The notes below the pieces were generated by a model. That model was not told the origin of the DNA, did no database searches, and saw only the letters and a program-made list of their open reading frames with translations. Source: Callorhinchus milii (Eukaryota). From it: a stretch of 64,000 bases of DNA. The stretch spans positions 14,014,001 through 14,078,000 of the forward strand of contig NW_024704743.1 of the NCBI RefSeq assembly GCF_018977255.1, read 5' to 3'. This document shows positions 2,121 to 58,614 of the stretch, piece by piece; the first letter of the stretch is position 1; each line of letters opens with the position of its first letter. Made by a program: the position numbers and the translations under genes.

Positions 2121-2685
2121 GTTGCTGAGCGCTTGATCAACAAGTTTGTCATTTAATCGTGTAGACGTGTAAAAGATGAAACTGATGTGAACACTGAGAG
2201 TTTATACCAGTCCAGGAACAGTCATGTATGTCACTCGGGACTGTGATTGCAGACTCCCCTGACCTGGGCTGCACATGGACAACATTCCTCACACACAGCA
2301 CAGAGCTGCGATGCACAGTCTGAGTGTAACGTGGCCTCCTGTGAGGGCAGTGACCACCCGGGACCCCTGTGCCCATCAGTCAGTCCGAGTGCAGTGTTGC
2401 TCGGGGGCCGCCTGTCACCCCCTCGGCGGCGCTGACCACAAGGTCCGGCGGGAACGTCCGCCCCGAACTCCTGCTCCGAGGCGGTTGGCGAGAGGGGGTC
2501 CGACCCGGAACAGTAACGGTGGGGCACCTGCTCACCAACATCCGGAAATTACCAGTGACCTCAACAAGAAGTGTGTGCGGGAGGAGAGAGGAGAGACACC
2601 GACACACACACACACACACAGCGCCGCGGAGACTGTCAGCGGCGGAACCCGGAGAGAGAGCGACCTGTGGAACCTTACCCGGGAG

Positions 2686-3005
2686 GGGCTGTGCGGGGCT
2701 GTGCTGTGCTGTGCGGGGCTGTGCGGTGCTGGGGCTGTGCTGTGCGGGGCTGTGCTGTGCTGTGCGGGGCTGTGTTGTGCGGTGCTGGGGTTGGGCTGTG
2801 CTGTGCGGGGCTGTGCGGGGCTGTGCTGTGCGGGGCTGTGCTGTGCGGGGCTGTGCGGTGCGGGGCTGTGCTGTGCGGTGCTGGGGTTGGGCTGTGCGGG
2901 GCTGTGCTGGTGCTGGGGTGGGCGGTGCTGTGCGGTGCTGTGCGGTGCTGTGCTGGTGCTGTGCGGGGCTGTGCTGTGCGGGGCTGTGCTGTGCGGTGCT
3001 GGGGT
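2686..3005. repeat. Pentamer mosaic tandem repeat (GCTGT/GCGGG/GCGGT)n
   Basis: Directly visible; accounts for the Cys/Ala/Gly and PRTAQ-repeat ORFs. Confidence 0.95.
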
Positions 3006-3059
3006 GGGCGGCATGATCCTGGCTGCCCGCTCGCCGTGTGGGGACACAGCTCCTGGAGT

Positions 3060-3302
3060 GCAGTGAGAGAGGGAGCGGAGCGGAGCCGCCCCCTCCCCCC
3101 CCCCTCCCCCCGGGACACGAGAGCCACACCAGCAGCGCCGGGACGGACAGTCTGACCTGACCCACAGCTCCGGTGTGGGGGGAGAGGAGGAGGAGGGCCG
3201 TGTGACCCTGTGCCTGAGCTGCAGACCCTCTCCATGTCAGCGCCGTCCGGGGCACCTCATCCCCAGTGAGAAGCATTGATCCCCGGAGACCCCGCACTGG
3301 GG
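3060..3302 (+). other. LRRFIP2: Candidate non-coding first exon of LRRFIP2
   Basis: Strong donor GGG|GTAAGT (GT at 3303) inside the CpG island; the 5' boundary is a guess. A second donor AAG|GTGAGA lies at 3516. Confidence 0.5.
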
Positions 3303-3699
3303 GTAAGTCGGGGGTCGGGTGTTGTTGTTGTTGTTCGGGGTGACCGAGGCTCGGCCCCGCGGACACAGCGGCTTTGTGTCAGAGCTCTGTCTCGGGTTCG
3401 GGTCGATCCACTGCCGTTTTGCCCGTTTTTTTTTAAAAAAAAGAAAGTGCCGCTCTGACACTCTCTCTCTCTCTCTCTGGGCGTTGGGAGAGGATTGTAC
3501 ATCAGCAAAGTTAAGGTGAGAGAGAAAGAGAAAGAGCAGCGAAGGCGGTGGGTGTGGAAACGGACTCTGATCTGTTGTTGTTTTCTACACGAAAGCTGTG
3601 TTTTGGTGGTGGTTCGGTGACGGTTTAGCGACGAATCCCCTTCTTTTGCTCATAAGGGAACTGTGTAACTGCTGTTACATTGATCTGTTTGTGTGGGAG

Positions 3700-4489
3700 T
3701 GGAGAGGAGAGAGAGAGAGAGACTCACTCAGTGGGGGGGAGGGAGGAGGGAGAGGAGGGAGGGAGGGAGAGGAGGGAGGGAGGGGAGAGGAGGGGGGAGG
3801 GAGGAGGAGGGGGGAGGAGGAGGAGGGGGGAGGGAGGAGGAGGGGGGAGGGAGGAGGAGGGGGGAGGAAGGGAGAAGGAGGAGGGAGGGGAGGGGGAGGA
3901 GGGAGAGGAGGAGGTGGAGGGAGAGGAGGAGGGGGAGGGAGGAGAGGGGAGGGAGGGAGAGGAGAGAGGAGGGAGGGAGAGGAGGGAGGGAGGGAGCGAG
4001 GGAGGGAGAGGAGAGAGGGAGAGGAGGAGGGGGGAGGGAGGGGGGAGAGGAGGGGGAGGGAGGGAGAGGAGGAGGGGGAGGGAGGAGGAGGGGGGAGGGA
4101 GGAGGAGGGGGAGGGAGGGAGAGGAGGAGGGGGGAGGGAGAGGAGGGGGGGAGGGAGGAGGAGGGGAGGGAGGGAGTGAGGGAGGAGGGAGGGAGGAGGG
4201 GGAGGAGGAGGAGGGGGAGGGAGGGAGGAGAGGAGGGGGGGAGGGAGGGAGGAGGAGGGGGGAGGGAGGGGAGGAGGAGGGGGGAGGGAGAGGGAGGAGG
4301 GGAGAGGAGGAGGAGGAGGGGGGAGGGAGAGGAGGAGGGGAGGGAGAGGAGGAGGGAGGAGGAGGAGGGAGGAGGGAGGCAGGAGGAGGAGGGAGGGAGA
4401 GGAGGGGGGAGGGAGGGAGAGGAGGAGGGGGGAGGGAGAGGAGGAGGAGGGAGAGGAGGAGGAGGAGGGAGAGGAGGAGGGGGGAGGGA
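3700..4489 (+). repeat. About 790-nt polypurine (GGA/GGGA-rich) tract
   Basis: Almost only G and A on the + strand. Confidence 0.97.
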
Positions 4490-39673: not shown

Positions 39674-39721
39674 TTTCATCGTCCCTCTGGGTCAAAATGG
39701 GGAGAGATCCATCAGTGGATG
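39674..39721 (+). CDS. LRRFIP2: LRRFIP2 exon 4 (48 nt): FHRPSGSKWGEIHQWM
   Basis: KWGxIxxW motif of the LRRFIP1/2 cassette exon; acceptor ttttcctctttag; donor ATG|GTAGGG; phase 0. Confidence 0.9.
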
Positions 39722-40269
39722 GTAGGGTGTTTTTGGGGTGATGCTGCATTAATGTATGCTGTTAATTACTAATTATTTGATTTTAGGAAAGTAACACACA
39801 ACGATTTACTTACTTTGCTTTGATGTAATGCGCAAGAATGTTATTTATTGTAATTGGCCTAACAGAATAGCACTTTGCTGATGCACATAATTTACAGAAT
39901 GTGACTATTCCAGCGTGTTGTGATTGAACGTTTTGACGAGCTTTATATAAAGCTAAGCCCTTCACCTAGCATTAACATCAGCACAATATGATAGACACTG
40001 TGTCAGCCTCGTTAATTGATGGGGTCTGGCACCACTACTTCTGCATGGAATTGATGGGTTATTCTGCATCTTATTGTCATGCAATTCAGCATCTTATAGA
40101 CTTTCATCTAACTTGGCATCTTACCGCTCCTGTTTTCTTCCAACTGACTTATCAGTACGGTATTGTAGTTGTTGGCCAATTTAGGACCATTTTTTAGAGG
40201 TTTTAATTGTTTCTGCTACATCTTGAGCATGCTAACTGCGAAGGGAGAAAATAGCTCATGATTCTGTAT

Positions 40270-40857
40270 GGATGTCTCTTTTCCCGTGGAGGATTGGTTT
40301 AATATATTTTCCCTCACAGTCTCTATGTGTCCCACTCTCTCTGTCTCTCTGTCGCCCATTAGCCTCTCTCTCTCTCTCTCTCTCTCTCTCAGTCTCTCTC
40401 TGTCTGTCTCTCTCTCTCAGTCAGTCTCTCTCAGTCTTTCTCTGTCTCTCCCACAAAAAACAGTCACTACTTTATAATATAGTCTCTCTCTGTCGCTCTC
40501 TCTGTCTCTTTCAGTCTCTCACTATCTCAGTCTCTCTCTCTCTGTCTGCCAGACATGGGAGGACTCTAACTCCCATGATAATCAGAAAAATGTGTGATAC
40601 ATTTGTTACAGAATATAGATGTATCTCTCTGTCACTACGTGCAGAATATGATGGATTCCTCATTTTGGGGCTTAATTAAAGCATTTTTAATGAGGCTCAT
40701 AAACGATAGGAGATCCTCCCGAAAAAGTGTGCCCATGACACAGACAGATGCAAGACCTTTCAGATGAGGTATAAATCGTGCTCTACGTCAATTGGTTATT
40801 GAGTGATTGACGGATACACTGACACACAGACAGACATGGTCGTTTTATTAGTATAGA
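40270..40857 (-). mobile_element. Probable non-autonomous Helitron 5' portion with (CT/CTGT)n microsatellite
   Basis: Minus strand begins A|TCTATACTAATAAAACG...tgtctgtctg, a Helitron-type 5' end; 3' CTRR end not found; left boundary approximate. Confidence 0.55.
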
Positions 40858-42029
40858 TGACTTGCGGGTGGAAGGCAATGTCCCAAAATAGCTTGTTTGA
40901 GATTCATGAAGAATTCTCAGGGTATTTTGTTTTATCAATTTCTTTCCTTTCTTGAAGCCATTTTGTTTTTATTACCTTCAGTTGAGGGTATGGTTCCATA
41001 AATGGGGCTTCCCTTCCCTGACCCCGTTCACCTGAAACACTGAGACTAATTATATAATGTATATACTCTTTCTACTAATCCTTGCAGTTGATATGCAAGT
41101 TAATGGTCACATTTTGATGACAGCCTTATCATTTGTGTGCAGACAGTTCAAGCAGGTTTAAAGGATGCCCCTGGTGAAGGCAGATAACAGAACAGACTTC
41201 TGAAACCACTGTTGCATCATAAATGTGACCGCAGCCGTTTTGACTTTAGATAAGTTTGAGGGTTGTTTCTTGGGAGCTGCTGGCAGGAGCCTGGAGCTAA
41301 AGTAATATCAGAAATAAGCTTCAACAGTCATTGCAAAACCCAATCAGATTGGACGGGTACTAAATTTAGCTCAAAGGAGGGCTTATGGGAGTTTTCAGCT
41401 CAGAGCAATTGACTGTTGGTCACTGACTTATTTATAGATCTAACACAGTACAAATTGAAATGTACAACTGTAATGTTTGTACATCCAAAACACAGTTTTG
41501 ATTCACTAGTTCCTTTTATTTAAACCTTACACTTCCACTCTCTTCCACAATCTGCGCAGTCACTTTCCCAGAATCCTTTTACACTTGCTTGTTTCTTATT
41601 GTCAATGTCCAATTGCCAATTAAGTCATTAAAACAATATGCAACACAACCACAAATTATATTTATATAGCCCCTTTCAAGTTGGGGGGAGGGTGTCCTAA
41701 GGAGCTGGGCAGTTCAGATATGCTGAATTGTGACATGAACAGTTTGGTCCATTCCTAATTTGAATGTGTTTGTATTGTAATTTAGTTTGCATTTGGAACA
41801 AATGCAAGTTTTTTGGGGCCTCATGTTCCAGAACAGCCAGAATAATGTGTTTGTTCCTCTGCCTTCCAAATTTTCTTCTCCCTTGTACCTTCCTCTCCTG
41901 AAAGCACTGACTCATGGAGAGATATGGATGCCGGTAGCTGCCTGCTCTGTGATAACTCACTCACCAGGCACTCATTCTTCATGTGTCGATCTTAGACTGA
42001 GTGTTTTGGTTGGCAGGCTTCTTAATTTA

Positions 42030-42530
42030 TTTATTTATTTTGGTCAGCATGTGTCTGACACCTGTAGAAACCCATCACCGTGCTTAACAGTATCCAAACC
42101 AAACTGAGAATTCCATGCGTCCCACCTACACATGGAAATCCCAGAGATAGATTGTTGGAATGGAATGTGCACTCTTTCCCCAGAAGGACGCATCCTGCTT
42201 ACCTAATTCCGGAAAGTATTAGGCACAGGTTGGCAAGAGCCAAGGCTTGGGGATCCCAGAGTTTGTGTTGAGATACTTCTGGAGTCCAACCAGCTAAAAC
42301 CTACTGATATCACTGTCTGGCAAGCTCTTCTGTCCAGCTAGGACCACCCTTCCCGTTAGAGCTTTGGCTTGAAGTGTTAACAAGAGCTGAGTGGGCGGAT
42401 TCCCTGCCCCCAGTTACTGATCTGTCTTTCTAGGTCCTACCGATGAGCCAAGCCGGCTGCTCTGTCATTAGGAGTGCCCTGGAATACTGTGGATCCGCCT
42501 GGCTAAGGAACTGGACTACTTAGAGAGTCA
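42030..42530 (+). repeat. Unclassified dispersed repeat (further copies at 44600-44850, 46736-47060, 56900-56990)
   Basis: Shared blocks gcttacctaat..aggttggcaaga, ggcttgcagggttaa..gagctgagtg..atccctgc and gaaacccatca..tgcttaa..gtatccaaac. Confidence 0.7.
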
Positions 42531-43625
42531 CAGTGGGAATTGAACTACCTAGACAGCCAGTTCAACTGCAAGGAGACACTGCCCCCCCCCCCCACCCCCC
42601 AGTCAGCCAGGAAGATAGTCACTAATTATTGGTTGTTCAGTATCTAACAAGCGAGGGTTTGAGTCCTCACTAGATGCCAGGATCTCTGAAATGTGCGAGA
42701 GTATTGCCACAATCTTCCCGTTTGTGCACACAGCAGGCTTTTTAACTTGGGGAAGTCACAGGAGCTTTTATATTGCGTGTTTCATAAGCTTCAAAATACA
42801 TACTTTGCTTGTAACAACAGTGCTTTGCATGTAAGATGGTGCTCTCAACATATGTATGGAAAATTTGCAAGTTACTTGATATTGAGGGGCTAATAATGGT
42901 GGAGTATGTGCTAGCATGTCCATTGTGTGCATTGACGGCCAAAATGTAAATTACAATTTTTTTGCAATAGCATCAACAACATTGTTTTGGAATGTAACGC
43001 TCTTTATGATGACTGTTCAGAAGGAAATGTCAGAACCTGTTCCTCCTTCCCCCCAAAAAAAAATCATGTTGCATTGTGTACATGATTAAATACTTTTTGC
43101 CTGCCCTGTGTAAATGAGCACACCTTAGGAGTGGTTGGGAATCAAAGCCATCAATTGGCAGAGTAAAATGGCACTTTTTCATCAGTATAAACTTCTAGCT
43201 TTACGAAGGTTGGAGCATCTATGTTGTCTTGGGTGGCCATTCTGTGGTTTGCGAAAGGTCGTTTTTAACAACGTGCAAATGGTACGTTGCTGTTCTTGCT
43301 TGTGCTTGAACTCGAAGGTGCTTGTTGCATAGATGTTGTCAAAGATAGGGCTGAGGATGGTTATGAAATCAAAAGTATTTTACTTGTTTTCAGCCAAGAC
43401 TATTTAAAAAAAATTGAATGGTAACTCTCGGTGCAGCTTATTCCGTGATTACATTCTCTAACTTAATGCCACTCTCCACAGCCCCACAAATACTGCTGAA
43501 TAATTTTATTGAACAATATTTTGCCTTGTTTTCTCTTCTCCCAGCATGTTTGAATGTGACAGGTATGATTTAGTCCCTGTGTGTTGTCTTCTTTTCCTAA
43601 TTTCTCTTCACTGTCTTCCTCCCAG

Positions 43626-43676
43626 GAGAATACAGAGCGTGCCAAGCATTCTCATAAGTCTGGCCGATATCATCTG
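43626..43676 (+). CDS. LRRFIP2: LRRFIP2 exon 5 (51 nt, or 55 nt to 43680): ENTERAKHSHKSGRYHL
   Basis: Similar to recalled human EDSERARYSHRSSHHRPYL; strong acceptor gtcttcctcccag; donor CTG|GTTTGT (alternative TTT|GTAAAC). Confidence 0.85.
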
Positions 43677-43765
43677 GTTTGTAAACTCTTCTTTCTTGCT
43701 ATTTCTTTACTTCCATGAGTCCCAACTATTTTAATTTATTTTCTGTTTTATTGTGTGTTATTGAG

Positions 43766-43809
43766 CAACTGTGGATAATGAATCTTATTGCAGTTCTAGC
43801 AGCCAAAGG
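43766..43809 (+). CDS. LRRFIP2: Probable LRRFIP2 exon 6 (44 nt as written): xTVDNESYCSSSSQR
   Basis: Position, size and S-rich ...SQR end fit recalled human GVEDALSIRSVGSHR; donor AGG|GTTAGC; acceptor phase is anomalous (see findings). Confidence 0.55.
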
Positions 43810-45740
43810 GTTAGCACTTCGGATCAGCCGTGCTGATCAGTTTTAACTTACTATGTAATTTGGTATGTGTGCCATTTTCTGTCCACCCACTTTTATTAGT
43901 GAGACATGCCACTGTTATTATGTGCTTCACTCTGATGTAGGGGTCTACTTTGCAATTTTCTCAATTGGATAGAAACTCTATTTGATTGTTCCTGTTTGCG
44001 AGTATGGCAAGTCCTGTAATTTCCAAGATTAGCAAATTCATTGACAAAGTACTGGGAACAAAAACAGACATTTGCATTTTACTCTTTATTCTTTTTTGTT
44101 TTACAAACTTTTTGCCAGCTTTCGTAAATTGAAATTGCATTTGTGAATGTCCCAAGTTAGCCTGCTTTTAACACGATGCCATTCGGGTTGCAGTTAGCAT
44201 TTTGAATTGTATTTGGGAGTATTTCAGAGCTGATTCTAAAAATAATTCAGACTGTCCACAAGTAGAACACTGATAACGGCAATGTGGCTTCATTACTTAA
44301 AGTAATATTGTTCTTATTTTATCTGTTACTGGATATATTTTAAACTAGTTCTGTGTGAGTTAAAGATTTCATTTGAGATTTGCTCGTAGAATGGAATGGT
44401 ATAACTAGAAGCTGACTTGGAGGAGGTACGATTCTAGCCTCTGATGTCTTGGTTTTAGCCAGTAACACAATTTTGTTATAAAATTTAAGATCATGCAGCA
44501 TTGTGAAATTATAGCTGATCTGAAGTTCAAACCCTTCGGCTGCTAGAACTGCACAAGATGCATCATCATGTTCTACGTACATATATATACCACCAATTCA
44601 TGGAAATTTCTCTTTCTCTAGAATGGAATGTACACTTAGAGGGTCACAGCTTGCTTACCTAATTATGAAGAATATTAGGTGCAGGTTGGCAAGAACCAAT
44701 ACTTCCTGGAGTTTAACCAGCTTAAAAACTCACAACTTACCATCGAGAGCACTGCCTGCCTTTCTAGCTAAGACCATCCTGCCTTTCAGGGTGTTGGCTT
44801 GCAGGGTTAACAGGAGCCGAGTGGGAAGAATCCCTGCTCCCAGTAAATTCTGCTCCCAGAATAAATTGGGATGTTTATAAGGGAGACAGATACTTGGGAT
44901 CAAAGGGTAATAACATGTAGAGAAGAGATGGAGAAATGGCTGTCAAAATGGCTGACTTCTGAGTCTTCAAGTTGCCACCACCATCCCTTCCCTGTAGCGA
45001 GTAGGGAGCGACACTGTTGACTTCATGATCTGGAAGTCATCAAATTTAGCTTCCTCTGGCTTCCTGTTTGTCAGCCTTCTGTCAAAATTGACATCTTGCA
45101 CGTTGCTCTCTACTCACTATAGGGACGGAGTGATAGAGACAACGTGAGGACTCATCTTTCTGCCAGAATGAACAGTGAATGTGGAAGCATTGAGCGCAAG
45201 CGCTTGAGCCTTTTCATAGTGCTGCTTGAGATTTTATATATGGGCCTAGACAGTGGGTGTCAATGGGCTAGTCAACGAGTGTTGTCCAGCAACTTTTCCC
45301 TCCCTGCCCTCTCCCCATCCTTTCTGGTCAGACTTATCTGTTTATGATTTAAATAACATACTTGTGATTTGAATTGTGAAATATGCAAATCTCCACCCTG
45401 AGTAATATTTTGGGAGGTTTAAAGCAGATTAATATTTTTGTTAAGGTTTTTACGGATTGAGTGCAGATTATAATCTGTTTTTTGTTCAAAGCACACCTCC
45501 AGTGATCTGGGCGGATCCTACAGAAGCAGTTCAAGGCGAAAAGACTATGTGGTTTGTGCAGTAGCAATTTATGTTAGGATACCAAGGAGCATGCATTAAA
45601 TTGATTGCGGCCAATAATGATTCACAGTAAAAGAATTTCTGCAAGTTGTATGTGTGTGTTTTTTTATCTCTCCATTTTTACTAACTTGAGTGGTTCTGAG
45701 CTGGCAAGACTGAATTTCTTGAAAATCACATCATGCATAC

Positions 45741-46372
45741 TTTATGGAGTCCTGTAGCTTAGTGGTTAGAGCACTCGCCTCACAAGCAAGAGGACCTGGG
45801 TTCGATTCCCGGGCAATGTGAAACCATGGGCATGTTTCCTTATTCCATATGCCCCTGTTTATCGAGCTTTTCCGGAGGCAATCATCCCTTCAAAAAATAA
45901 AAATTTTAATTTGGTCACTTAATCCACGACTGTTTATGGGACACTGCTGTGAGCAATTGGCTTCTGCGTTTTGCCCACAAAACATGCAATCAATTCACAT
46001 TACAGTATATTAGAACATTTGCCGCGCAAGCGAGAGACCTGGGTTTGATTCCTGGCAGGGCGAAAACTTGGGCAAGTTTCCTTACTCCACATGCCTGATA
46101 ATGATCCCTCAGGAAATAAATAAACAAAATAAGAATTTGGTCACTCAATCCATGACTGTTTATGGGACACTGCTGTGTGCAATTGGCTGCCACGTTTTGC
46201 CCACAAATATACAGTCAATTCACTTTACAGTATATTCTGTGGAGTACTTTGAGTCGTCTAGAAGACGTGAAATGTGCTATAACAAAAGCAAGGATTATTA
46301 TTCTGTGAAGCGCTATGAGACGTCCCAAAGACGTGTTAAGGCACTATATCAAATGCAAGGATTATTATTATT
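45741..46372 (+). mobile_element. Two head-to-tail SINE copies with a duplicated tail
   Basis: The head recurs at about 46020; the tail occurs twice (about 46240-46300 and 46300-46372). Confidence 0.8.
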
Positions 46373-48093
46373 AATATTTGTGAAGCTCACTTACAGTAAC
46401 ATGCACAATCTCCTTTTGTTTAACCTTTAATACTGGGTCTCTATCCCCAACCACTCAAAATAATACTGTAGTGTGATTCAGTATAATGCCTTGACACTGA
46501 ACAAAACAACTACCCCTCTGGAAATAATGAACTCTATTCAGAGGAATACATCAGGTTGAGGCTCTCTTAGTAGTCTTATCTTCCTGCATTATTTCTATGG
46601 CTACCATTCATGGTCCAGTGGATTAATGTTTCAAATAGCTATGTTGTGGCTCTTAGCTGGTTTGATATTTCTTCACACAGATGCTTGACAAAAAATGGAC
46701 TACACTTCCCCAGAAGGCCATAGAGGCAGAATGCATTGGAAGGGCAGGGATTCTAATCACTCAGCTCCCATTAACCCTGCAAGCCAAAGCCATAACTGAT
46801 AGGGTATATTGTGTATTGTGGTACTCCAGAAGTTTAACCACCTAAAACAGCATAACTTGCCATTGAGAGGACGGTTTGGCAAGGTTTTCCGCTGTTTGTC
46901 CAGGAAGGACCACCCTATCAGGACCACCCTACCACCATTGGGAGCTGAGTGATTAGAATCCCTGCCCTTCCAAGACCTGCTGATGAGCCAGGCTGACTGG
47001 ACTGACATCAGCAGCATCCTGGAATACTACAGACCTACCTGGCTCAGGAACTACCAAGATTCCAACATTCTGTTCCTAAGCATGTCACGTTGGTGCTGGC
47101 TCAGCTCCAAGGAAACCTTGCTTACCTTTATCTTCTCCTTTTCCACCAACGGATAGTCAAACTGATCATGCAATTCTCTGGTGAACCTCAACTGCCATCA
47201 CACACAGGTGGAAGCCCATCATGGTGCTTTAAGCCCTTACCTAAATAGTTTTATACAATATAATTGTAATTCCTTCAGAATCGTTTTAAGTTGCTTAAAG
47301 CAAAAAAAATGATGGCGTCTAGCTTAATTACTGAAATGTTTGGCCTCTGCTCAAAAGCCCACTGCTTCATTTCTTGCCAGCAGGCATGTTCAAGAAGCTA
47401 TTTTCTTTCTGAAGGGAATTTCTCTTGTCCAGCAAAAGAGTATCTTATAATTGTCGCTTGTGTGGTCGATTTTCCATTAACATGCACTGAGAACTGATTG
47501 GTGAATGTTTTCTTGAGTGTGTTGTTCATTACGTGGCAAAATACTTTGCATTTCTTTGTTCTAAGAGAGCTGAAAGCAAAGCTTGGAGTGTTTTATAATC
47601 ATCATTGAAACGGCTTATTTTAACTTACACTGGAAGTTTCTCTCTGCAGTCGACCTGTGTGGGGTGAAGCACCTATATTGGGAATATGATGGCTTCCCAA
47701 CAAATTGAATGTGCACCTACATGAAGTGGAATTTTGTGTCTGGTGCTGATTGACTGCATGTTGGGTTGTGTTAGATTGCTTCTCATAGAATGGACTGAGT
47801 TCTTTTGTTCTTGAGACTTTCCTCACTAAAGTGCACCACCTTTAGGCTAAACATAGAGTATTGGTGATTGTACAGTGGAATTTGTGGCTTGAACATCTGA
47901 CCTCAGTGTTCAAGGAGTAAACCGATTCACCAGGCCTTTGGTTTTGTGATTCGTTGAGGTGTTAGGTGGAAGAATGCAACCGCATGTGCTGACGTTTTAT
48001 GTCTCATTGATATTTCTTAATTCACTCATCTGTCTGTCTTCTATCATTTCTTGCTCATCTTTTGATCTAATTTTCCTTTTCATTGGTTTATAG

Positions 48094-48144
48094 TCTTCTG
48101 ATGTAAAGGACAAGTCATCCCAGTTCAAGAAACTCTCCCAAGCT
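48094..48144 (+). CDS. LRRFIP2: LRRFIP2 exon 7 (51 nt): SSDVKDKSSQFKKLSQA
   Basis: KDKSS resembles recalled human KDRSS; pyrimidine tract with TAG; donor GCT|GTATGC; phase 0. Confidence 0.75.
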
Positions 48145-48537
48145 GTATGCAATCACTGCTTTGTTGTTATCTTGGCTGCATGGGGTGTTTTATCTGTGCG
48201 TGTGTGTGTATGTGTGCGTGCGCGTGTATGCTTCGAAAGAAAGGCTCAAATTGTCTTTCAAAGATGGGCACTAGCCACAAATGCAAGTTACTATTCACCA
48301 TGTGGAAGTTTTTAGATTGCATAGTACAATGGCACCCTTTCTGGAGAACTTCATCTGAAACATGTGTTCAGATTATTCAGCTGTTACCGTTTTCTCAATG
48401 TTTCTATTCTTCCACATTTAAGTTTATTTAAGAGGGCCAGGGTGGAGGGCAAGAGCAGGCATTTGGTTGTGCTGCATGGGTTATGTACATATTTGGCTCC
48501 TTTTATAACGATTCTTTAATTTGCTTTTCACTCTCAG

Positions 48538-48603
48538 AACTCAGTTTACAGTGATCGCCTCGCTGCCAAGAAGACGCTCTCTAGTTCTAATAAAGACCTA
48601 CTG
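48538..48603 (+). CDS. LRRFIP2: LRRFIP2 exon 8 (66 nt): NSVYSDRLAAKKTLSSSNKDLL
   Basis: KK..S.S.KDLL matches recalled human KKRSSDSHKDLL; acceptor ttttcactctcag; donor CTG|GTTAGT. Confidence 0.88.
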
Positions 48604-48866
48604 GTTAGTTGAGCGGTGCTATATCTGTTTGTTAAATGAGGCAAAGTCCCCAAGCTTCTGTGAAACACTGGGACCCTGAGATGGATTTATTTTTGTCTGC
48701 CTCGTACAATGCTTTAGCGAGGACAAGCATCGTTCTCAATTAGTCGTCTTAATGATGGTGTTTATGCTGGAGTTGTGATAATATTGAGATTTGTTTTGAC
48801 TTGATTCTATGTGATTTGGCAACGGTGCTATATGCATTCATACGTTCTATGATTTGCTTTTTGCAG

Positions 48867-48935
48867 AGTGGAATGTACTACGATCAAAGAAACTACAGCA
48901 CCCTGCGTAACTCTAAACTGCACTCCTACAGTCGG
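48867..48935 (+). CDS. LRRFIP2: LRRFIP2 exon 9 (69 nt): SGMYYDQRNYSTLRNSKLHSYSR
   Basis: Close to recalled human SGLYFDQRNYSSLRHSK; acceptor tttttgcag; donor CGG|GTCTGT. Confidence 0.92.
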
Positions 48936-49389
48936 GTCTGTCCTTTTATTAGTTTCACAATGATTCATGCAGACTGGCCTTGGTGTTTTTGGAGATCGCC
49001 TTCAAACTTGTTTTGTATTTTGTTTTGCTTTAACCCTTTTCAGTCCTGAAAAGTTTTTGGTTTCCCACCTGACGTCAAGCTTTATAAATCTCAGGATTTG
49101 CTTGAGAAATATTTCCTTTGATCCTGCATTTAATAATTAGTACTGTGCATGTGCCATTGTGGACTGCATGTAAATGTTCTCTCCATGTTTATTTTGGTGA
49201 AGATATTTTGTAAAATATTGAATATAGTTCAAAATGTCCCAAAAAGCAATGATTTTGCTTAAATGATGGCTTTTGTATAACTTTTGTCATTGCGTCCACC
49301 ACTTGAGCTGGTAGAATGGCCTCCAGCACTGTAAACCTTCTAAAAGTGGATGACTTGGGAGTCCAACTTACTATTTCTCCACTAATTCC

Positions 49390-49730
49390 ACATGAACTGT
49401 GTTTTTACTGTCCAATCTGAAACTAAGCCACCCAGATCAAGAATGACTAAGAGCTGTGCTGAGTTAGTTGACATCAACACACGATTTTAATACCCTGGCT
49501 TGGGAGTGGGAAAAAATGACCAGGATTTTTGCTTCTGATTGTTCTCCTGTGATTGTTTCTGGAGAGTGCTATGTGTGGCAGATGCCAGCTGAGGACCAGA
49601 TCAGGTTCTATCAGTGTCCTATCAACCGCTGAACAGCGTTCAGTGTCCAGGCTTGCACATGAAGAATGGGTGAAGTCTCAGAGGTCAATTTCCTCCTATG
49701 GAGCCTCACCCCAAATTGTGTTGACATCCT
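49390..49730 (+). mobile_element. Ancient UCON3-like SINE (degenerate minus-strand copies near 6470-6720, 25040-25170, 28760-29010, 39190-39505, 61480-61650)
   Basis: ctgtgctgagttagttga...ccctggcttgggag...cagtgtccaggcttgcacatgaagaatgg resembles the UCON3 consensus as I recall it. Confidence 0.5.
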
Positions 49731-50139
49731 GTACGCTTGATGACAAGCTATAAATAATCAGACTAACCAGTTGATTGTCATATTCTTTATCATTACATTT
49801 GGGGAGGGGGGTGGGGGTTTGGTGGGGGAGGTTAATTTCAATACAAATTGTGGACAAATGCAGCCTTTAGTTGTCTTTTCCCTCTTCTCCTCCTGCTGAT
49901 ATTTTGTTTTTTGTAACTAGAAAAGTGCAAAAAGCCTGCCAGAGGATTGCCCTCATCATTAACTACATGTGGTAATTGAAGCATAAACAAGCATATTCAG
50001 CTAGAAATGGTGCTTCAGTGCTGTCACTTTTTACTATTGTCAGTGAAATTGTCACACCCCTCCTTCCCCCAGCAGCCCGTCATGCTCCGTCACTGTCAAA
50101 CACTCTGGGACGCTACCCTGTGTGAGGGGTGCTCTATTC

Positions 50140-50605
50140 AATACAAAATTAAATTTGTAAAGCACCTTTCATGTCAAGGAGGACGTCCCAAGGTACTGGA
50201 CAGTCAAGGATTTGGACCTAAGCAGGAAGGTTTGGGATCAGCGAGGGTGGAGGGTAGGAGGGAAGACCGAAGGCGCAGTTGAAGAGGAAGGTCTTGAGAT
50301 GTGCCTTGAAGGAGGCAAGAGATAGAGCGAGGCAAAAGGAATATGGGATGGAGTGGCAAAAGGTGTTGGTAGCGAGGCTGAAGGGCCGACCGACAACGGT
50401 GGGGCACGCCGGGCGGGGGATGTGGAGCAGGCCAGAGCCTGCTGAATGGAGTGCGTGGACAGGTTGATAAGGGGTTACCAGGTCGGAGAGGTAGGAGGGG
50501 GCAATGCCATGGAGGGCCTTGAAGGCGAGGACTAGAATTTTGAACTCTATCCTCTGAGGGATGGGGAGCCAGTGGAGCCGGGCGAGGGTGGATGTGCGGG
50601 AGAGA
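50140..50605 (-). mobile_element. L2 LINE 3' end
   Basis: LARLHWLPIPQRIEFKILVLAFKALHG motif and L2 tail. Confidence 0.9.
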
Positions 50606-51372
50606 ACATGAATATAAATGCGAGTTGTTGTTGATAACAAAATACTTTCACCCAGAGTAAAACATTCCTGCCCCATTCTTCTCTTTCCTCCTCCTCCCAT
50701 TTTGTTTTTCTATTTGCTCCCTTTCATATATTTTCTCACTGAATTATTTTTTTGGAAATTAATCCTAATTCATTTGTTTTGTTTTTAAAGTACTGTACAA
50801 TGCTGTACAGTACTTTAACACGGACCAGAAATCCTTGGGCTGGATATCCTTGGGCAATTAAGAGGAATGTGTTGATGTGCTAACTTTAGTTTGGAACACA
50901 CGGCTCTAGCACTTTGGCTCACAATTATGCTTGCAACGCTTCTTAAGGGCAATATTTAAGACCTTTTCTGATGAATATTAAGGAATCTGTATTTTTTTTT
51001 CTGTCATCAATTTGGGAACACTTCTGTAGGACGACATTGCATTTTAATGTAATATTAAGTTTCTGATCAAACCATACAATTCCCTAGATACTACTAATTA
51101 GTCATCACCTTCGGTTCCTTTCTGAAGGATATCCTGCAAAGCTATGTGCTTTTTTATTTGCAATCTTGTAAACTGCAGAAATCATAAGAATACACTTAGT
51201 CCTGATCAAAATCTGCAGTTTCAGCAGTCAGAGAGTCTAGAATGAGTTCCTCCAGAACTGCTGTGAACTGCAAACTTCACCATCCAGAGGAAGGACTGTG
51301 CCTTTCACAGGGAGAATAGGACCCTCAACTTGTAGCCATAATACAAGTCCTGCCCTTTCTGTAATTTGTCAT

Positions 51373-51786
51373 TAGTGTTGTATTGCTCGTGACCTGGGCT
51401 AATAGAAAAGTGTGGAAATATTTGCCAAAAATGCGGGACATTTTGGCAAATTTAGCAGTGGAGTTTTAACAGGGGTGGGCACCAGCAAGGCTACAGGAGC
51501 TCACCACCTCCAGCCTTTCTCAGAGTCTGGCACCGCACACAGACGAGTGAGTGAGACACACTCATAGAATGAGAGACACACACTCAGAGACCCAGAGAGA
51601 GACACAGACACACAAACACGCATACACAGACACACTCACACAGACACTCACAAACACATAGAGACAGATACACACACATGGACTACATGTTTAGCTCGTT
51701 TGCAGCAGAGGAGGGCATTTGTAGCGGATTCCACTGAAAAAGTGCGGCCGCACTTTTCTGTTGGCCCAGATTATGACCCAGCACTT
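51373..51786. mobile_element. Old MITE-like element with degenerate TIRs and internal (CA/GA) repeat
   Basis: 51387-51415 matches the reverse complement of 51748-51776 at 23 of 29 positions; outer ends agtgttg / cagcact. Confidence 0.45.
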
Positions 51787-51890
51787 TCAGTGTATTAAAT
51801 CCATTGATCTAAATGGTTATAGTAATTGCATGATTAATTTTGAATGCACAATTGTAATTAATTGAGATTTTTCCTCCATTTCCAATACAG

Positions 51891-51938
51891 CCTTCTTCAT
51901 TATATAGTGATCCAATAGCAACAACAAAAAGCTATAGG
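51891..51938 (+). CDS. LRRFIP2: LRRFIP2 exon 10 copy a (48 nt): PSSLYSDPIATTKSYR
   Basis: Matches recalled human QSSSLYSDPLATYKSDR; ACAG| acceptor and AGG|GTTAGT donor. Confidence 0.9.
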
Positions 51939-52046
51939 GTTAGTATCACCTGCTTGACACCAGGTCTCATTCTATTGGAAAATATTTGCCTGTTTTACAA
52001 TTCATTTAAAAAAATGTTCATTCAAGTTTTTTTATTTTCATCACAG

Positions 52047-52094
52047 CCTTATTCACTGTATAGTGATCCGATAGCAACAACAAAAAGCTATAGG
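52047..52094 (+). CDS. LRRFIP2: LRRFIP2 exon 10 copy b (48 nt): PYSLYSDPIATTKSYR
   Basis: Tandem copy with intact ACAG| and AGG|GTTAGT; frame preserved. Confidence 0.82.
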
Positions 52095-52205
52095 GTTAGT
52101 ATAAATGCTTGACACGGGTCTCATTCTATTGGACTAAATTGTTTGCTTATTTTACGATTAATTAAAAAACTATTCATTTAAGTTTTTGTTTTATTTTCAA
52201 CACAG

Positions 52206-52253
52206 CCTTCTTCACTATATAGTGATCCAATAGGAACAACAAAGAGCTATAGG
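52206..52253 (+). CDS. LRRFIP2: LRRFIP2 exon 10 copy c (48 nt): PSSLYSDPIGTTKSYR
   Basis: Tandem copy with intact splice sites; frame preserved. Confidence 0.82.
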
Positions 52254-52366
52254 GTTAGTATCACTTGCTTTACACAGGTTCTCGTTCTGTTGGACTAAAT
52301 TGCTTGCCTGATTTACCATTAATTACAAAAAATGTTCATTCAAGTTTTTTTGTATATTCAACACAG

Positions 52367-52411
52367 CCTTCTTCACTATACAGTGATCCAGTAGCAACAA
52401 CAAGTTATAGG
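52367..52411 (+). CDS. LRRFIP2: LRRFIP2 exon 10 copy d (45 nt): PSSLYSDPVATTSYR
   Basis: Tandem copy with an in-frame one-codon deletion and intact splice sites. Confidence 0.82.
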
Positions 52412-52509
52412 GTTAGTATAATTTCCTTGGACAGAACTTATTGTCCTATATACGTTGCTACAGTACCTGTGACTTTTAATGGGAATAAATTCATCCTTTT
52501 TTTCCCTAG

Positions 52510-52554
52510 GCATCTTCTAATTTGGGCACTGGCCTATATCGAAGTCAGAGTTTG
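52510..52554 (+). CDS. LRRFIP2: LRRFIP2 exon 11 (45 nt): ASSNLGTGLYRSQSL
   Basis: Aligns to recalled human ASPTANSGLLRSASL; acceptor tttttttccctag; donor TTG|GTTGGT. Confidence 0.88.
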
Positions 52555-53779
52555 GTTGGTATATTGCAATTGCATGGGCTGTGGTGGTATTTTGCAAGGC
52601 TCTGTAGGGGATAAGAGCAACAATAACTTTTGTGCAACTTAATTTCTTTAAAAAATCTTGTAACTTCCCCAAGCTTTCAATAACATTTTACAGTGTCTAC
52701 CAATGCAGAGTCCAATTTAAATGGTTTCATGTTAGATCACTTTAAGCCAATGATCTAATTCTAAATTTGAAAGCTGTTGTTTGTAGTGCTGCATTCGTAC
52801 TTTATCGTGCATTGTGGAACAAAGGACTGTTGAAAGGCAAACTTCAAGTGATTGACTCAAAGATGAGTAGTGTTGCAGTGAAAAGGCATTTGAGTAAACC
52901 TTAAACTTTAGGGTAATTCAAAGAATACTCTTATACATTAAATCCTATAAAAGACTGAGAAAATTGAACAACGGCTAAGAAATTCAAATAAAAAGTTAAC
53001 TTGTAATATTGCCAGAAACGTTCTGCAGCATCTGGAAGACGGTCACAAAAGCACTTGCACTAGGCCTCTTAGAATTCCCTGTTTCCCTTTACATTTTCTA
53101 TATTGCCTTCTAATTGTGCTGCTTCTTAACAGGATCCATTAATATAGATAATGAGTTTTAAATAGGGATTCCTGGAAATACATTCAGGCTGCCTTGCAGG
53201 AATCCTGCAATCTACTTCAGTGAGGGTTGGAGTGGGGTTCCCGCAGAACATGGTTCCATTTATAAAGAAGATGCTCTATGTGACAGCCTGTGCCTTCTGC
53301 GTATCCTCTGTTTCAGCATTGTTGGTCATCTATTCAGCAACTACACCTGGAAACTTCAAAACACTCTACCTCAATCCCTCTGCCTTGCTCCCTCCTTGCT
53401 CATCTTCAGATTGTACCTGAAGACCTTCTTCCGACTATACCTATGGTCACCTCCCCTCTCTCCCCGGCTTGGAGTCGAGCGAGCTCTGCCAGTGTTGAAT
53501 GCTCTGAGATGCTACTCCGCATTAAGGCCATGATATAAATGCAAGTTGTTGTTTATCAACAAGTCTCACTGAACGAACACCTCAAATTAAACTGCATTGT
53601 TGAGAAGGCAATGTCCTTGTATTGCTATACTCACTGTGCTAATTTTAAACTGCACATGATAGGATTCATGGAGCAAACAGTTTATCAAGTGTCTACCAAT
53701 TCCCAGTTGGTAGTGAAGTGTTCGAGAAATGCCTGAGAGCAAACGTCATTAACACTGCTCTAATAGCATATTTGCTTTT

Positions 53780-54101
53780 AATAATAATAATAATCCTTGC
53801 ATTTGATATAGCGCTTTTCACGTCGGGAGGACGTCCCAAAGCGCTTCACAGAATATACTGTAAAGTGAATTGACTGTATATTTGTGGCGAACGCGGCAGC
53901 CAATGCGCACAGCAATGTCCCACAAACAGTCGTAGATTGAAAATGACCAATTTATTATTGTTTTTGGTTTTGGAGGGATTATTATTAGACTTGTGGAGTA
54001 AGGAAACTTGCCCAAAGTTTCGCCCTCTGCCTGGAATTGAACTCAGGTCTCTCGCTTGCAAAGCGAGTGCTCTAACCACTGAGCTACAGGACTCCACAAA
54101 G
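53780..54101 (-). mobile_element. Full-length young tRNA-derived SINE
   Basis: Highly similar to 1799-2120; TTTAA on both flanks. Confidence 0.9.
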
Positions 54102-55712
54102 GCTTTAAGGCTGAACAAGACAGTTGTGTTGTAAATTGGATAATATTTTGTGACAATGTTTTTTTCTTACCATTTCTTAGCATTTCAGAGTGTCCCGAGT
54201 TTGACAAATTCTTAAGTTGAGTTTTATATTCGAAGCTTTATTTTTTGTTCTTTTAAGAACTAGAGAAAATGCAAGGCTTATTATTGTAGAAAATCTGGCT
54301 TCAAAGTTGAGACTGAATTCAACAATTTGTGAAATGCTATACAAATAAGAGTAATCTAGACCCAGGTGGACTTTCTCCCCTTGCATTTCATTTGAATGAA
54401 ATATACACACTCCAGTCAAATGGAGGAACACTATTTGAGATACCATCTCCTTGAGAGTTAAGTACCATATCGTAGCCTCTGAGGTCAGGTATTCTTCCCC
54501 ACCTTCGCTATCTTTTTGTAACTTTCAACTAGTATACAGCCGCTCTCTCTTCCAAAATCCCTCCCACCTCTTGCCTCTCCTAGATCTTGCTACAAACCTA
54601 TCTCTTAGTTCATTACCTCATCACCTTTCTCCCTATCTTCTTCCACTTTGACCAGTGTCCCACACTATCTATGTAAAGTGTCCTGAGATGTTCACTGTGA
54701 AAAGCGTTCTATGCAGGTACAAGTTGTTATATTCTACCTCATTCCTTGAAAGTAGTTCAGCCACCACATGTGGACGTTTCTCCTCATTTCTCTTTCTGAA
54801 CTGGTGCATCTTGGAGCTTAATTTTTGTGTGTTCAGAGCATCTTCATGTTTCAATTCAATGTTCTACCTATCGTCAAGAACTGAGTTGTTTCAACGTGAC
54901 GCTGTTTATATCAAGGATCGGAGCAAGAGATGTTGCTTTGTGGTACCAAATGGTCAAAGGCGCAATTGTCCCAAGCATTTTTTGCATTTCTCATGCTCCA
55001 TTTAATGACTGAGTATTTCTTCATATTGTGTGTGTATATATAGAAGATGAAAGAATCAGATGCCTCGGTTCGGTAATCTAAATAGCTTCAGTTGAAGCAA
55101 CAATTGCAAAAACACTGGAGTTTAGGGATTATGTCAGAATTGCCACCATAGGCCTCCCTTATCTGAAAATTTCTAATAATCAGGGTTTCCAGTCTGCCTG
55201 ACAAAATGCTGCTTCTTTAACGTTTCTGCCTTATAATTCTCCTGTAGATTGCAAAACGTTTGGTGGAACAGTGCTATTTTCATATCACCTTCAGCACGCC
55301 TTTGTCCAACATTTGCAAGGTGTTTTTACTGACTAACTCAAAGTGGCTTGTTTCTTGTCTGGCTCATTTTGTAAAAAAATTAAACCTGAATTTTATGGGC
55401 AATTCATTCTCTTCCTAAAAACAATATTAGTTTTAATTAATACAGCTGTGTGCATAAGTACTTTATCCCAAAACATTGCACATCATGAGATATACTGATA
55501 TTATCCAAATACAGCGATTTGAATTAAAAATTGCTGCATTGTTTGAGGAAATGAATAATCAGTTAAAAGCTTGTATTTTACTTGTGCAAACTTTTTACAT
55601 AGAGAAAGTTTAATTATAGGGGTAATGCTATTAACCTGAAGGTGGAATGACTGACAGAATTCAGATAGTTCATATGACAATTAAGCTTTTGGCCAAAAAT
55701 CTTTGTTCATAG

Positions 55713-55769
55713 GCATCGCTGCGTGACACGGGACTCTATCATCGAGACCCGAAATACAGTTCAAGAACT
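55713..55769 (+). CDS. LRRFIP2: LRRFIP2 exon 12 (57 nt): ASLRDTGLYHRDPKYSSRT
   Basis: Aligns to recalled human ASLYNGGLYNPYGPRT; donor ACT|GTAAGT. Confidence 0.88.
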
Positions 55770-55889
55770 GTAAGTTTTGTCTTTGGACCTTGTGTGCAAC
55801 GTGTTTTATCTAAAATGTTTCCTGTTTTTAGACCATGGTGGTGGTGGTGGTGTTTTTTTTTAAAAAAAACAACTTCACTTTTTCCACAG

Positions 55890-55943
55890 CCATCCGAGTA
55901 CAGCTATTCCTTCCGATCGAGCTCAGCAAGGAGCAGCCCACTG
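55890..55943 (+). CDS. LRRFIP2: LRRFIP2 exon 13 (54 nt): PSEYSYSFRSSSARSSPL
   Basis: Aligns to recalled human PSECSYYSSRISSARSSP; acceptor tttttccacag; donor CTG|GTGAGA. Confidence 0.92.
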
Positions 55944-57230
55944 GTGAGAGGGGATGATTACTGATGATATTCAGAATAACGTTAACAGTAAATGAATTTT
56001 GTGTGGCTGTACTTAATGCAGTGCAACAAATAGTGAGTAAGTAAAGTAAATCGCAGGTTGATAGGACGAAAATGTATTTGGTGGTAACAAACATCCTTAT
56101 GTTAGTTGAAAGAATGCACTGTGCACTATTGCTTTGCTTTGATATGAAGATCTGGGCGTTGACACTGGCATAGCAGCAACCTAAACTGCGTGTAAATTGT
56201 AGAACAGGAACAGCTCTGCTTGAGATATAGGACAGGTGTTCCTAACTGGTGCTAGCCATTCTTATATATCTCCCCTTCTTTCTGCAATGATCCTTGCCTT
56301 GGGTGCAGTGCAACAGAGTGGGAGTGACTTCCTGAAGGGGGAGACGGTGACATACACTCACGTGGTTCACCCACCCTTACTGGCTCCCGATTTGATGAGT
56401 AGACTCATAGGTGAGATTGGTGACCACAGAATCGTACCCCAGCACAAATCCTCTTGAAGCAAGGAAGATAAATCATTGTGAATAAGAAGATATGCACCAA
56501 TAGAGTCTACAAGAGTTTTTCAAGGGCCTGTTTACATGGTATATTAAATCTGGAATGAGTATGGGAAAGGTTTTAATGCTTTGCTGACTTACTGTATTGT
56601 ATCATCACTGATTTGTGCATATACTGACACAAATAGGATTGGTAGAAACCAGGATTAGGAGCACACCTGTTGCCAATGAAAGTTCCATTCCGTTTGTTAA
56701 ATGTGAAATGCTCTCCTGCAGTTGAGATTGTTTTGTCTAATGGGATGTGGTTCTTTCCTGGTTCTTCTATTTGCCCCCAATAGATTGACTCGAGCTATAA
56801 TGTGAGGAGGCACATGTTCACACCGCTATTAACTTTACACGGTAGTTCCAAGTATGGTTGAGTTGGTTTCTTCTGTGTTGTGATCCTCCCCATAAGTGTT
56901 TTGTTTTTGGACACCTGGCTATCTGACACATGCAGAAACCCATCAACATGCTTAAGAGTATCCAAACAAACAGAGTTCTGTATGTAAGGTCAGGATTGAC
57001 TTACTTCTGGTTATTGCCATGACTGGCTCTGAAAAATCCCGTTAGAAACTACACTTCAGGCATTGTTGAGTTTGGTACTGTTTAGAAATCCGCTATGTGA
57101 TTGCTGCATTTCTGAAGAGAGTGACCAGCTCGGTTTACCGCTTACTACCCTGTGTCTGGAGCTGCTTCAGATAGCCATTGTGTGAGAAGGTTTTTGTCTG
57201 TCATAACTCGTGTACTTTAAACGTTTATAG

Positions 57231-57299
57231 AATTCAGATGATGAAACGCTGAGCACAGTGTCCCAGGATGGCCTCAGTCGTGGCCGCCGTGACAGCGTG
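57231..57299 (+). CDS. LRRFIP2: LRRFIP2 exon 14 (69 nt): NSDDETLSTVSQDGLSRGRRDSV
   Basis: Aligns to recalled human FTNDDTASIVSSDRASRGRRESV; donor GTG|GTAAGC. Confidence 0.92.
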
Positions 57300-58500
57300 G
57301 TAAGCTCTCTGTGCATGTCAGCATGTTTTGGATCTGAGCTGCTGCTAATAATGTTTTCCACTTCACGAGAGATTATTGTCGTGTGTAGAGGAAGCTGAGG
57401 TGGTGAAACTTGGCAAACGTCTTTTTAAAAGATTAAATTTCCATCCCAAATTGCCTGATTGAGGGGCAGTACCTCAGTGTTTTGCTAAGCAATTGCAAAA
57501 TATTGCCCTGCTTATTGTTTATTTGCTAATATTTGGGTGATTAAGACATCTATAGAGACTAAACAGAATTCACCAGCAGCCGATAGTGGCAAAAGAGGTG
57601 TACTGCACAGATCTTTTCCTTGCGCTAAATGCAATATATTGCAATTTGAGTGCCATGTGATCAGTCTCTGAGCTTAAAGTTTAAAAAATATTTTATACAG
57701 TTCTTTTCGTGTTCAGTGAGAGCTCCTTCAGGGCCCTTGCATTACAATGGTTGCTGAATCCATCGTCCACATAGCAGTGGATTAGTGGATGACATCCCTT
57801 TACTTACTTTTCAGTATTAAACCTATTGGTGCAAATCCAGGATGTAACCTCCAACCTGACTTCCAAGTGAGGCAGAGACTCCCTTGTAATTTACATATTT
57901 CAAATCTGAAATGTGAAGGAGTTGCACTGGAATTGCTTTATTAGTGCGTTGGAGGTTTCCTGGTTAACTCCTTCACATATGAAAGGAAGGTTCCTCTTTT
58001 CAGTTGATGTTGCAATTCTTATCATATCTGCAAAGTGTTATTATATCTGCAAAGTGTAAGGAGAAGCAGTAAATGCTTAACCCAATGACCAGGACAGGAT
58101 ATTGTAACAAGGTAGTGTGTGTAGGTCGGAAATGTCTCCAAGAAACAGTTGAGCTATTTGTCACTTTCAGAATTCAGTAACCTGATCAATTAGTGTCAAA
58201 GAGAGTTTCTGAGATCTAATGAGAACATAATCTCTCTGGCTTGAAGCCTCACTTTAGAGTCCTGCCCTTAATGTTAATATGTTTACTTTGTGTGTTTCAC
58301 TGGTCTGAACACAACTCACACAATCTTTAGATTTCCGTGACTCATTCTGTGAAGCTCTTTGAGATGTTTCTTTTACACGAAAGGCATTATATAAATGTAC
58401 GTTATTGTTGACTCTCCAGGAAACAAGCCAAATTTCCTCTTTGTACATTCTGTGTTCTCTTGCTTTTCTTCTTCACTAAACTTTTTGCTTTTCTCTGCAG

Positions 58501-58614
58501 TCTTCTGATTTTTCTGATCAGAGTGAGTCGATAGCTGACTACTTTAGCCGCTCAAACCGCAGGGGGAGTGTGGTATCTGATTTGGATGACTCTACTGTTC
58601 CTGACCTCTTTATT
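58501..58614 (+). CDS. LRRFIP2: LRRFIP2 exon 15 (114 nt): SSDFSDQSESIADYFSRSNRRGSVVSDLDDSTVPDLFI
   Basis: Conserved ADYFSRSNRRGSVVS block; long pyrimidine tract with CAG; donor ATT|GTGAGT. Confidence 0.93.

Follow-up and report, generated by a model that had tools for sequence, protein, structure and literature searches.

A fourfold tandem duplication of one LRRFIP2 cassette exon in Callorhinchus milii

Here we describe an array of four head-to-tail copies (a to d) of one cassette exon in the LRRFIP2 gene of Callorhinchus milii, all of them in phase 0 and with intact splice sites. As adjacent homologous exons with their own splice sites and homologous introns, they constitute a tandem exon duplication. 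The array is real, expressed and, as far as tested, lineage-restricted; it was already included in automatic annotation and represents an ordinary case of exon duplication. We hold with good confidence that it arose by the lineage-restricted tandem duplication of a single cassette exon whose copies are used additively, and we think that a tolerated expansion with leaky skipping is more likely than a regulated switch. It provides a clean, small and RNA-supported case of tandem exon duplication in which the copies add up, and leaves general views on splicing and gene evolution unchanged.

The array within the LRRFIP2 cassette block

The 5′ portion of LRRFIP2, read from the plus strand, lies in the window analysed, i.e., the whole stretch of 64,000 nucleotides. 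Exon 2 matches the Pfam family LRRFIP (PF09738; E 3.5e-12), a search with two other short exons gave no match, and a downstream exon matches C. milii proteins at 100% identity, all the 100% matches being named LRRFIP2. Furthermore, the longest RefSeq protein (777 aa) fits, exon by exon, the window together with the 29 kb beyond it, one junction residue excepted; the exon numbers used here are our own count from this mapping. Judged from the family domain, the LRRFIP2-named closest relatives and the colinear exons, the gene is the LRRFIP2 orthologue. Just 5′ of its first coding exon lie long GC-rich and purine-rich simple repeats (2685-4489).

The copies belong to a cassette block (39674..58614, plus strand) of 15 short phase-0 exons, numbered 3 to 17 with the four copies included, the lengths of all 15 being divisible by three. 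The block is omitted whole in the short isoforms of the RefSeq models, and many differing subsets of its exons are skipped in shark and ray models. On the same strand, the array is preceded by exon 8 (48867..48935, 69 nt), whose junction with exon 7 occurs in sequencing runs X2, X4 and X5, and is followed, after a 98-nt intron, by exon 13 (52510..52554, 45 nt). Elsewhere in the block, depth reaches tens of thousands over the stretch 53779-54100 in each of the four runs aligned, with many loose ends; the stretch is probably an interspersed repeat of high copy number, for instance a SINE.

Copy a (51891..51938, plus strand as are all features of the array) spans 48 nt, encodes PSSLYSDPIATTKSYR in phase 0 and is present in RefSeq isoforms X1-X5 and X8. 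It is followed by intron a-b (51939..52046, 108 nt), by copy b (52047..52094, 48 nt, PYSLYSDPIATTKSYR), found in five of the 15 C. milii records, by intron b-c (52095..52205, 111 nt), by copy c (52206..52253, 48 nt, PSSLYSDPIGTTKSYR), by intron c-d (52254..52366, 113 nt) and by copy d (52367..52411, 45 nt, PSSLYSDPVATTSYR), which has one codon deleted and is part of every long RefSeq model. The three introns have GT-AG ends, the four exons are preceded by ACAG and followed by identical donors (AGG/GTTAGT), and the unit of exon plus intron recurs with periods of 156, 159 and 161 nt. The original prediction for this DNA had given these coordinates, peptides, splice sites and periods, all of which are confirmed from the sequence. 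Tandem Repeats Finder reports a period of 161 with 3.4 copies and 84% matches, whose score of 748 is the highest of the 21 repeats reported in the window. The DNA of the array has a single match in the genome, and a six-frame scan of 114 kb returned no further copy beyond a to d, save for one weak match on the reverse strand.

Intron a-b is free of stops in frame, and its retention would introduce a hydrophobic insert of 36 residues between two repeats, for which no RNA support was seen in the aligned runs. Reading of the whole array as one long exon is ruled out by the in-frame stop codons of intron b-c.

The array is held by the RefSeq models of C. milii (XP_042187770.1 to XP_042187777.1; XP_007902237.1), whose isoforms carry a-b-c-d, a-c-d, c-d or d; they contain the same four exons, but as automatic predictions without comment. 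Among the 15 C. milii records, four copies are found in five, three, two and one copies in one record each, and none in seven; the zero-copy models omit all or most of the cassette block, and none of the 15 keeps the block while dropping the four copies. The novelty implied by the original prediction thus does not hold, the array being present in RefSeq models and splice-modulated repeat number being a catalogued class. The literature searched, from which subscription journals are mostly missing, yielded no description of the array. The gene name occurs once in a Greenland shark genome preprint. LRRFIP2 is absent from the main text of ASPRING (bioRxiv 10.1101/2023.04.29.538821).

Joining of the copies in transcripts

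Thirteen sequencing runs were found, none of them recorded as RNA, and four (X2, X4, X5 and X11), all consisting of contigs, were aligned. The runs are guessed to be RNA and carry no tissue label, and the contigs give no expression levels. Exact GT-AG joints connect a to b in runs X2 and X4, the shorter side of this joint being the 48 letters of b, and connect c to d and d to exon 13 in X2, X4 and X5; introns a-b and c-d are thus removed exactly in two and three of the four runs, respectively. The listing, which covers 15 of 73 junctions, does not include 8-a, b-c or 8-c. Run X11 has no junction anywhere in the cassette block and is uninformative either way.

Runs X2 and X4 come from different studies. 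In each of them the a-b, c-d and d-to-13 junctions share one depth figure (70.7 in X2, 38.5 in X4), suggesting one contig per run. A single-contig model yields 32.28 in X2 and 29.44 in X4 for bin 52232-52592, where 32.3 and 29.4 are observed; the bin before it, the lower one, is not fully explained by this model (24.1 vs 28.9 in X2; 13.1 vs 14.9 in X4). Moreover, the spliced four-copy path contains no repeated 31-mer, and an assembly graph would therefore be unable to shuffle the copies. From these data we infer an a-b-c-d message in both runs, including the removal of intron b-c. In run X4, the contig that extends from exon 13 onwards (52510-58614) shows a depth figure five times as high as that of the array contig (195.2 vs 38.5), a step that could reflect either 3′ bias or upstream skipping.

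The direct a-b, c-d and d-to-13 junctions in two runs of two studies indicate that the copies are co-included and not mutually exclusive, in line with the original prediction that inclusion need not be mutually exclusive. Tandem exon duplicates are a classic source of mutually exclusive exons (PMC9013439), and a reading in which each message takes one copy, or in which the extra copies are silent pseudo-exons, would agree with that precedent. It is nevertheless highly improbable in view of these junctions, of introns of 108-113 nt and of the common phase 0 of all copies. In the additive reading that we prefer, the introns are long enough for neighbouring copies to be joined, and since every copy is in phase 0, any subset keeps the reading frame. 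When the block is included, all four copies can enter together, and the upstream ones can be skipped with d retained.

The extent of this skipping is less firmly established. In run X5 copies a and b are uncovered, and a contig running through exons 7 and 8 ends in a tail of 29 letters, whose placement is not listed. Out of five placements of this tail, copy c alone fits both depth bins (1.348/3.365 vs 1.35/3.37 observed), and the tail has the length predicted for a merge of joint 8-c with another path into c. The lack of coverage of a and b counts against a c-like allele of a, though contigs drop variants. A two-copy message with exon 8 joined directly to c is therefore likely in this run, as far as depth can tell. 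The three- and one-copy forms come from gene models with junctions that mis-mapped reads can mimic.

It could also be that all four copies are always included and that the RefSeq skip isoforms are read-mapping artefacts, a proposal that bears on skipping alone and can stand beside the remainder of our explanation. The last 24 nt are the same in a and b, the first 9 in a and c, and the first 14 in c and d, and every 31-mer of the 8-c and a-c junctions is at most one mismatch away from the four-copy path. Furthermore, the skips that would be easily told (8-b, 8-13, a-13, b-13 and c-13) are missing from the models, no skip joint occurs among the 15 of 73 junctions listed, and the majority of tandem exon duplicates become constitutive (PMC8373072). 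On the other side, the contigs of X5, the product of reference-free assembly, do not cover a or b and fit the 8-c join only, and 12 of the 30 31-mers of junction 8-d differ from the full path by at least two mismatches. On balance we regard constant inclusion of the four copies as rather unlikely. The case illustrates that near-identical short exons can give rise to isoform models that short reads cannot separate.

The suggestion that splicing could set zero to four repeats thus survives in part: contigs give four copies in two runs and, by inference, probably two in one, while three and one appear in the gene models just discussed and zero corresponds to skipping of the whole block.

Divergence, origin and distribution of the copies

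The inner introns differ pairwise by 12.4-15.7%, about 50 times the 0.28% that separates run X2 from the reference (19 substitutions in 6872 nt, mostly intronic), taken here as the allelic level. An assembly artefact, or merged haplotypes, would be conceivable given that no DNA run is among those aligned over the array, but this divergence and the occurrence of copy-specific exons in independent runs make it extremely improbable.

The variable codon columns comprise six synonymous changes, three nonsynonymous changes and one codon deletion, in agreement with the original count. Nonsynonymous changes amount to 0.055-0.094 per site vs 0.25 in the introns (Fisher P 0.008-0.046 in three-unit sets), and omega among the copies lies near 0.2-0.3. 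For the synonymous excess, P is 0.006 when all nine changes are taken, uncorrected, and 0.03-0.12 in stricter three-copy counts. These figures are suggestive of mild purifying selection on the copies, in a test based on 8-9 changes, and the coding constraint put forward originally thus appears likely, amino-acid changes being fewer than neutral; splicing enhancers or gene conversion could mimic the synonymous excess. The intron indels had been described as not being multiples of three. This is true of some of them, the gap runs being 3, 3, 1, 1, 1 and 1, of which some break the frame, but two of the three introns have lengths divisible by three, and intron a-b is open in frame.

Regarding the origin of the array, the inner introns are far more alike one another than like the flanking DNA. 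Their 3′ part is weakly similar to the DNA before a (matched by 4-14 of 300 shuffles) and their 5′ part to the intron behind d (12-36 of 300), both values being uncorrected and marginal, and a TTGCNT word stands 60-64 nt before every copy. An unequal crossover would have fused the beginning of the intron downstream of the exon with the end of the upstream intron, forming a chimeric intron, and the resulting unit of 156-161 nt would then have been amplified to four by later unequal crossovers. The intron similarities and the TTGCNT words would fit this sequence of one old duplication followed by unit amplification.

The mutation rate of the epaulette shark is 7e-10 per generation (PMC10587355). 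If the rate is taken to be 0.5-1e-9 per site and year, the duplication would be 70-180 million years old, and under the epaulette shark rate, with assumed generations of 5-10 years, more than 480 million. The latter exceeds the age of the C. milii lineage, which is younger than 480 million years, so that no reliable date can be given.

Cassette exon 7 (48538-48603) resembles the repeated exon (score 32, attained by 0 of 1000 shuffles), and is the sole one to do so among the 11 other block exons tested. This likeness hints that the block may have grown through an older duplication of the repeated exon unit.

Outside C. milii, 250 records were compared (the best 120 of 8000 matches, the best 120 of 515, cluster members and one short match), of which 193 hold one copy, 57 none and none two or more; weak second matches seen at a loose score cut-off disappeared at a strict one. 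These records are predicted proteins, without another chimaera, ray-finned fish or human among them, and other species may carry unannotated copies. By the names listed, the exon is carried by 13 shark and ray species, birds, crocodilians, lizards, sheep, hare and a frog. The array is thus already annotated in C. milii, and is absent from the sharks, rays and tetrapods sampled; the single copy that the original prediction gave for human is matched by the mammal records retrieved, sheep and hare standing in for human. A second holocephalan was found by neither the near-length, the shorter-protein nor the representative-protein search, a blank that is no evidence. Of the 1093 candidates in the shorter-protein search one matched, a single-copy fragment from a tailed frog, and the representative-protein search gave seven, namely the tailed-frog fragment and six repeat-rich proteins, of which the five inspected are unrelated.

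The peptide itself is old and conserved. The sevengill shark version is identical to copy a at 15 of 16 residues, the SLYSDP core is kept in tetrapods, and the peptide is close to bird and mammal versions. Erosion of the motif in many sharks and rays shows that it is not indispensable. In the sevengill shark, the orthologous exon of two models (P0074 and P0075) begins with or without one extra Q, a difference that a tandem acceptor would produce.

Possible function and comparison with known systems

The array would add up to 47 residues to a Ser/Tyr-rich linker of the long isoform, presumably of the muscle type, by repeating an old conserved peptide of the form SLYSDP-hydrophobic-AT that is probably a short docking or phosphorylation motif. 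In an AlphaFold2 model built on a 30-sequence alignment, helices are confident at both ends, pLDDT is below 50 for residues 84-373, and the repeats stand at about 30; with low confidence as a proxy, they are predicted to sit in a disordered linker.

A candidate RBFOX-type element, TGCATG (51827..51832, plus strand), lies 64 nt before copy a. It is intact there only, the corresponding place before b, c and d reading TGCCTG, TGCTTA and TGCCTG. Beside cassette exons of the gene TGCATG occurs seven times vs 2.2 expected (P 0.007), and beside constitutive exons twice vs 2.4.

These observations invite the idea that tissues or stages choose one to four motif copies through splicing factors, thereby tuning how avidly the long isoform binds a partner, with the element retained before the first copy repressing entry at a. 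The differing paths assembled by the runs (a four-copy path in X2 and X4, probably a two-copy path in X5) and the near-identity of the peptide with its sevengill shark, bird and mammal counterparts would agree with such regulation, as would the association of upstream RBFOX-type sites with repression (PMC11874969). The same source reports that repression does not consistently follow the upstream rule; besides, the difference in paths comes from one run and by inference, the runs have no tissue labels, no candidate partner of the peptide was found, and the motif is eroded in rays. We consider regulated choice of copy number unlikely. If true, the array would be an old, selected and splice-controlled avidity dial whose motif has been retained all the way from sharks to mammals. 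It would then also offer a natural lead on what an uncharacterised region of LRRFIP2 does, LRRFIP2 being required for embryonic heart development in mouse. The array singles out a 16-residue peptide of the heart-type block as deserving a partner test, because this peptide is conserved in tetrapods and multiplied here.

In mouse Lrrfip2, exons 4-17 are included in a 110-kDa form detected in heart and skipped in a 55-kDa form, and the knockout causes embryonic death with heart defects (bioRxiv 10.1101/2021.12.14.472540). The C. milii models share these long and short forms, and the repeated exon is single in sheep and hare. Exon 7 of the human short variants is, we presume, a different exon located downstream of the repeated one. 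It constitutes the best-studied splicing event of human LRRFIP2 that we found (PMC9616898).

Alternatively spliced repeats, in which exon inclusion alters how many repeats are present or how they are mixed, are described in nebulin, in the calmodulin-binding motifs of myosin 1b, in LGR5 and in matrilin 2 (PMC7617313; bioRxiv 10.1101/2023.04.29.538821). Like the cases collected by ASPRING, the C. milii copies are similar exons of one gene that are not mutually exclusive; those cases are mostly old and conserved across species, whereas here a disordered peptide of 16 residues is multiplied by four in one lineage. Isoforms that differ in inclusion, by which ASPRING defines such repeats, are proposed by the RefSeq models, where mis-mapping could mimic them, and inferentially in one run.

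With tandem duplicated exon substitutions and mutually exclusive exons (PMC8373072; PMC9013439) the array shares its origin, i.e., tandem duplication with short introns. About 10% of animal genes are reported to have tandem exon duplicates (as cited in PMC9013439), and most of these are co-included (PMC8373072). Mutually exclusive exons replace one another, whereas the C. milii copies join their neighbours and add up.
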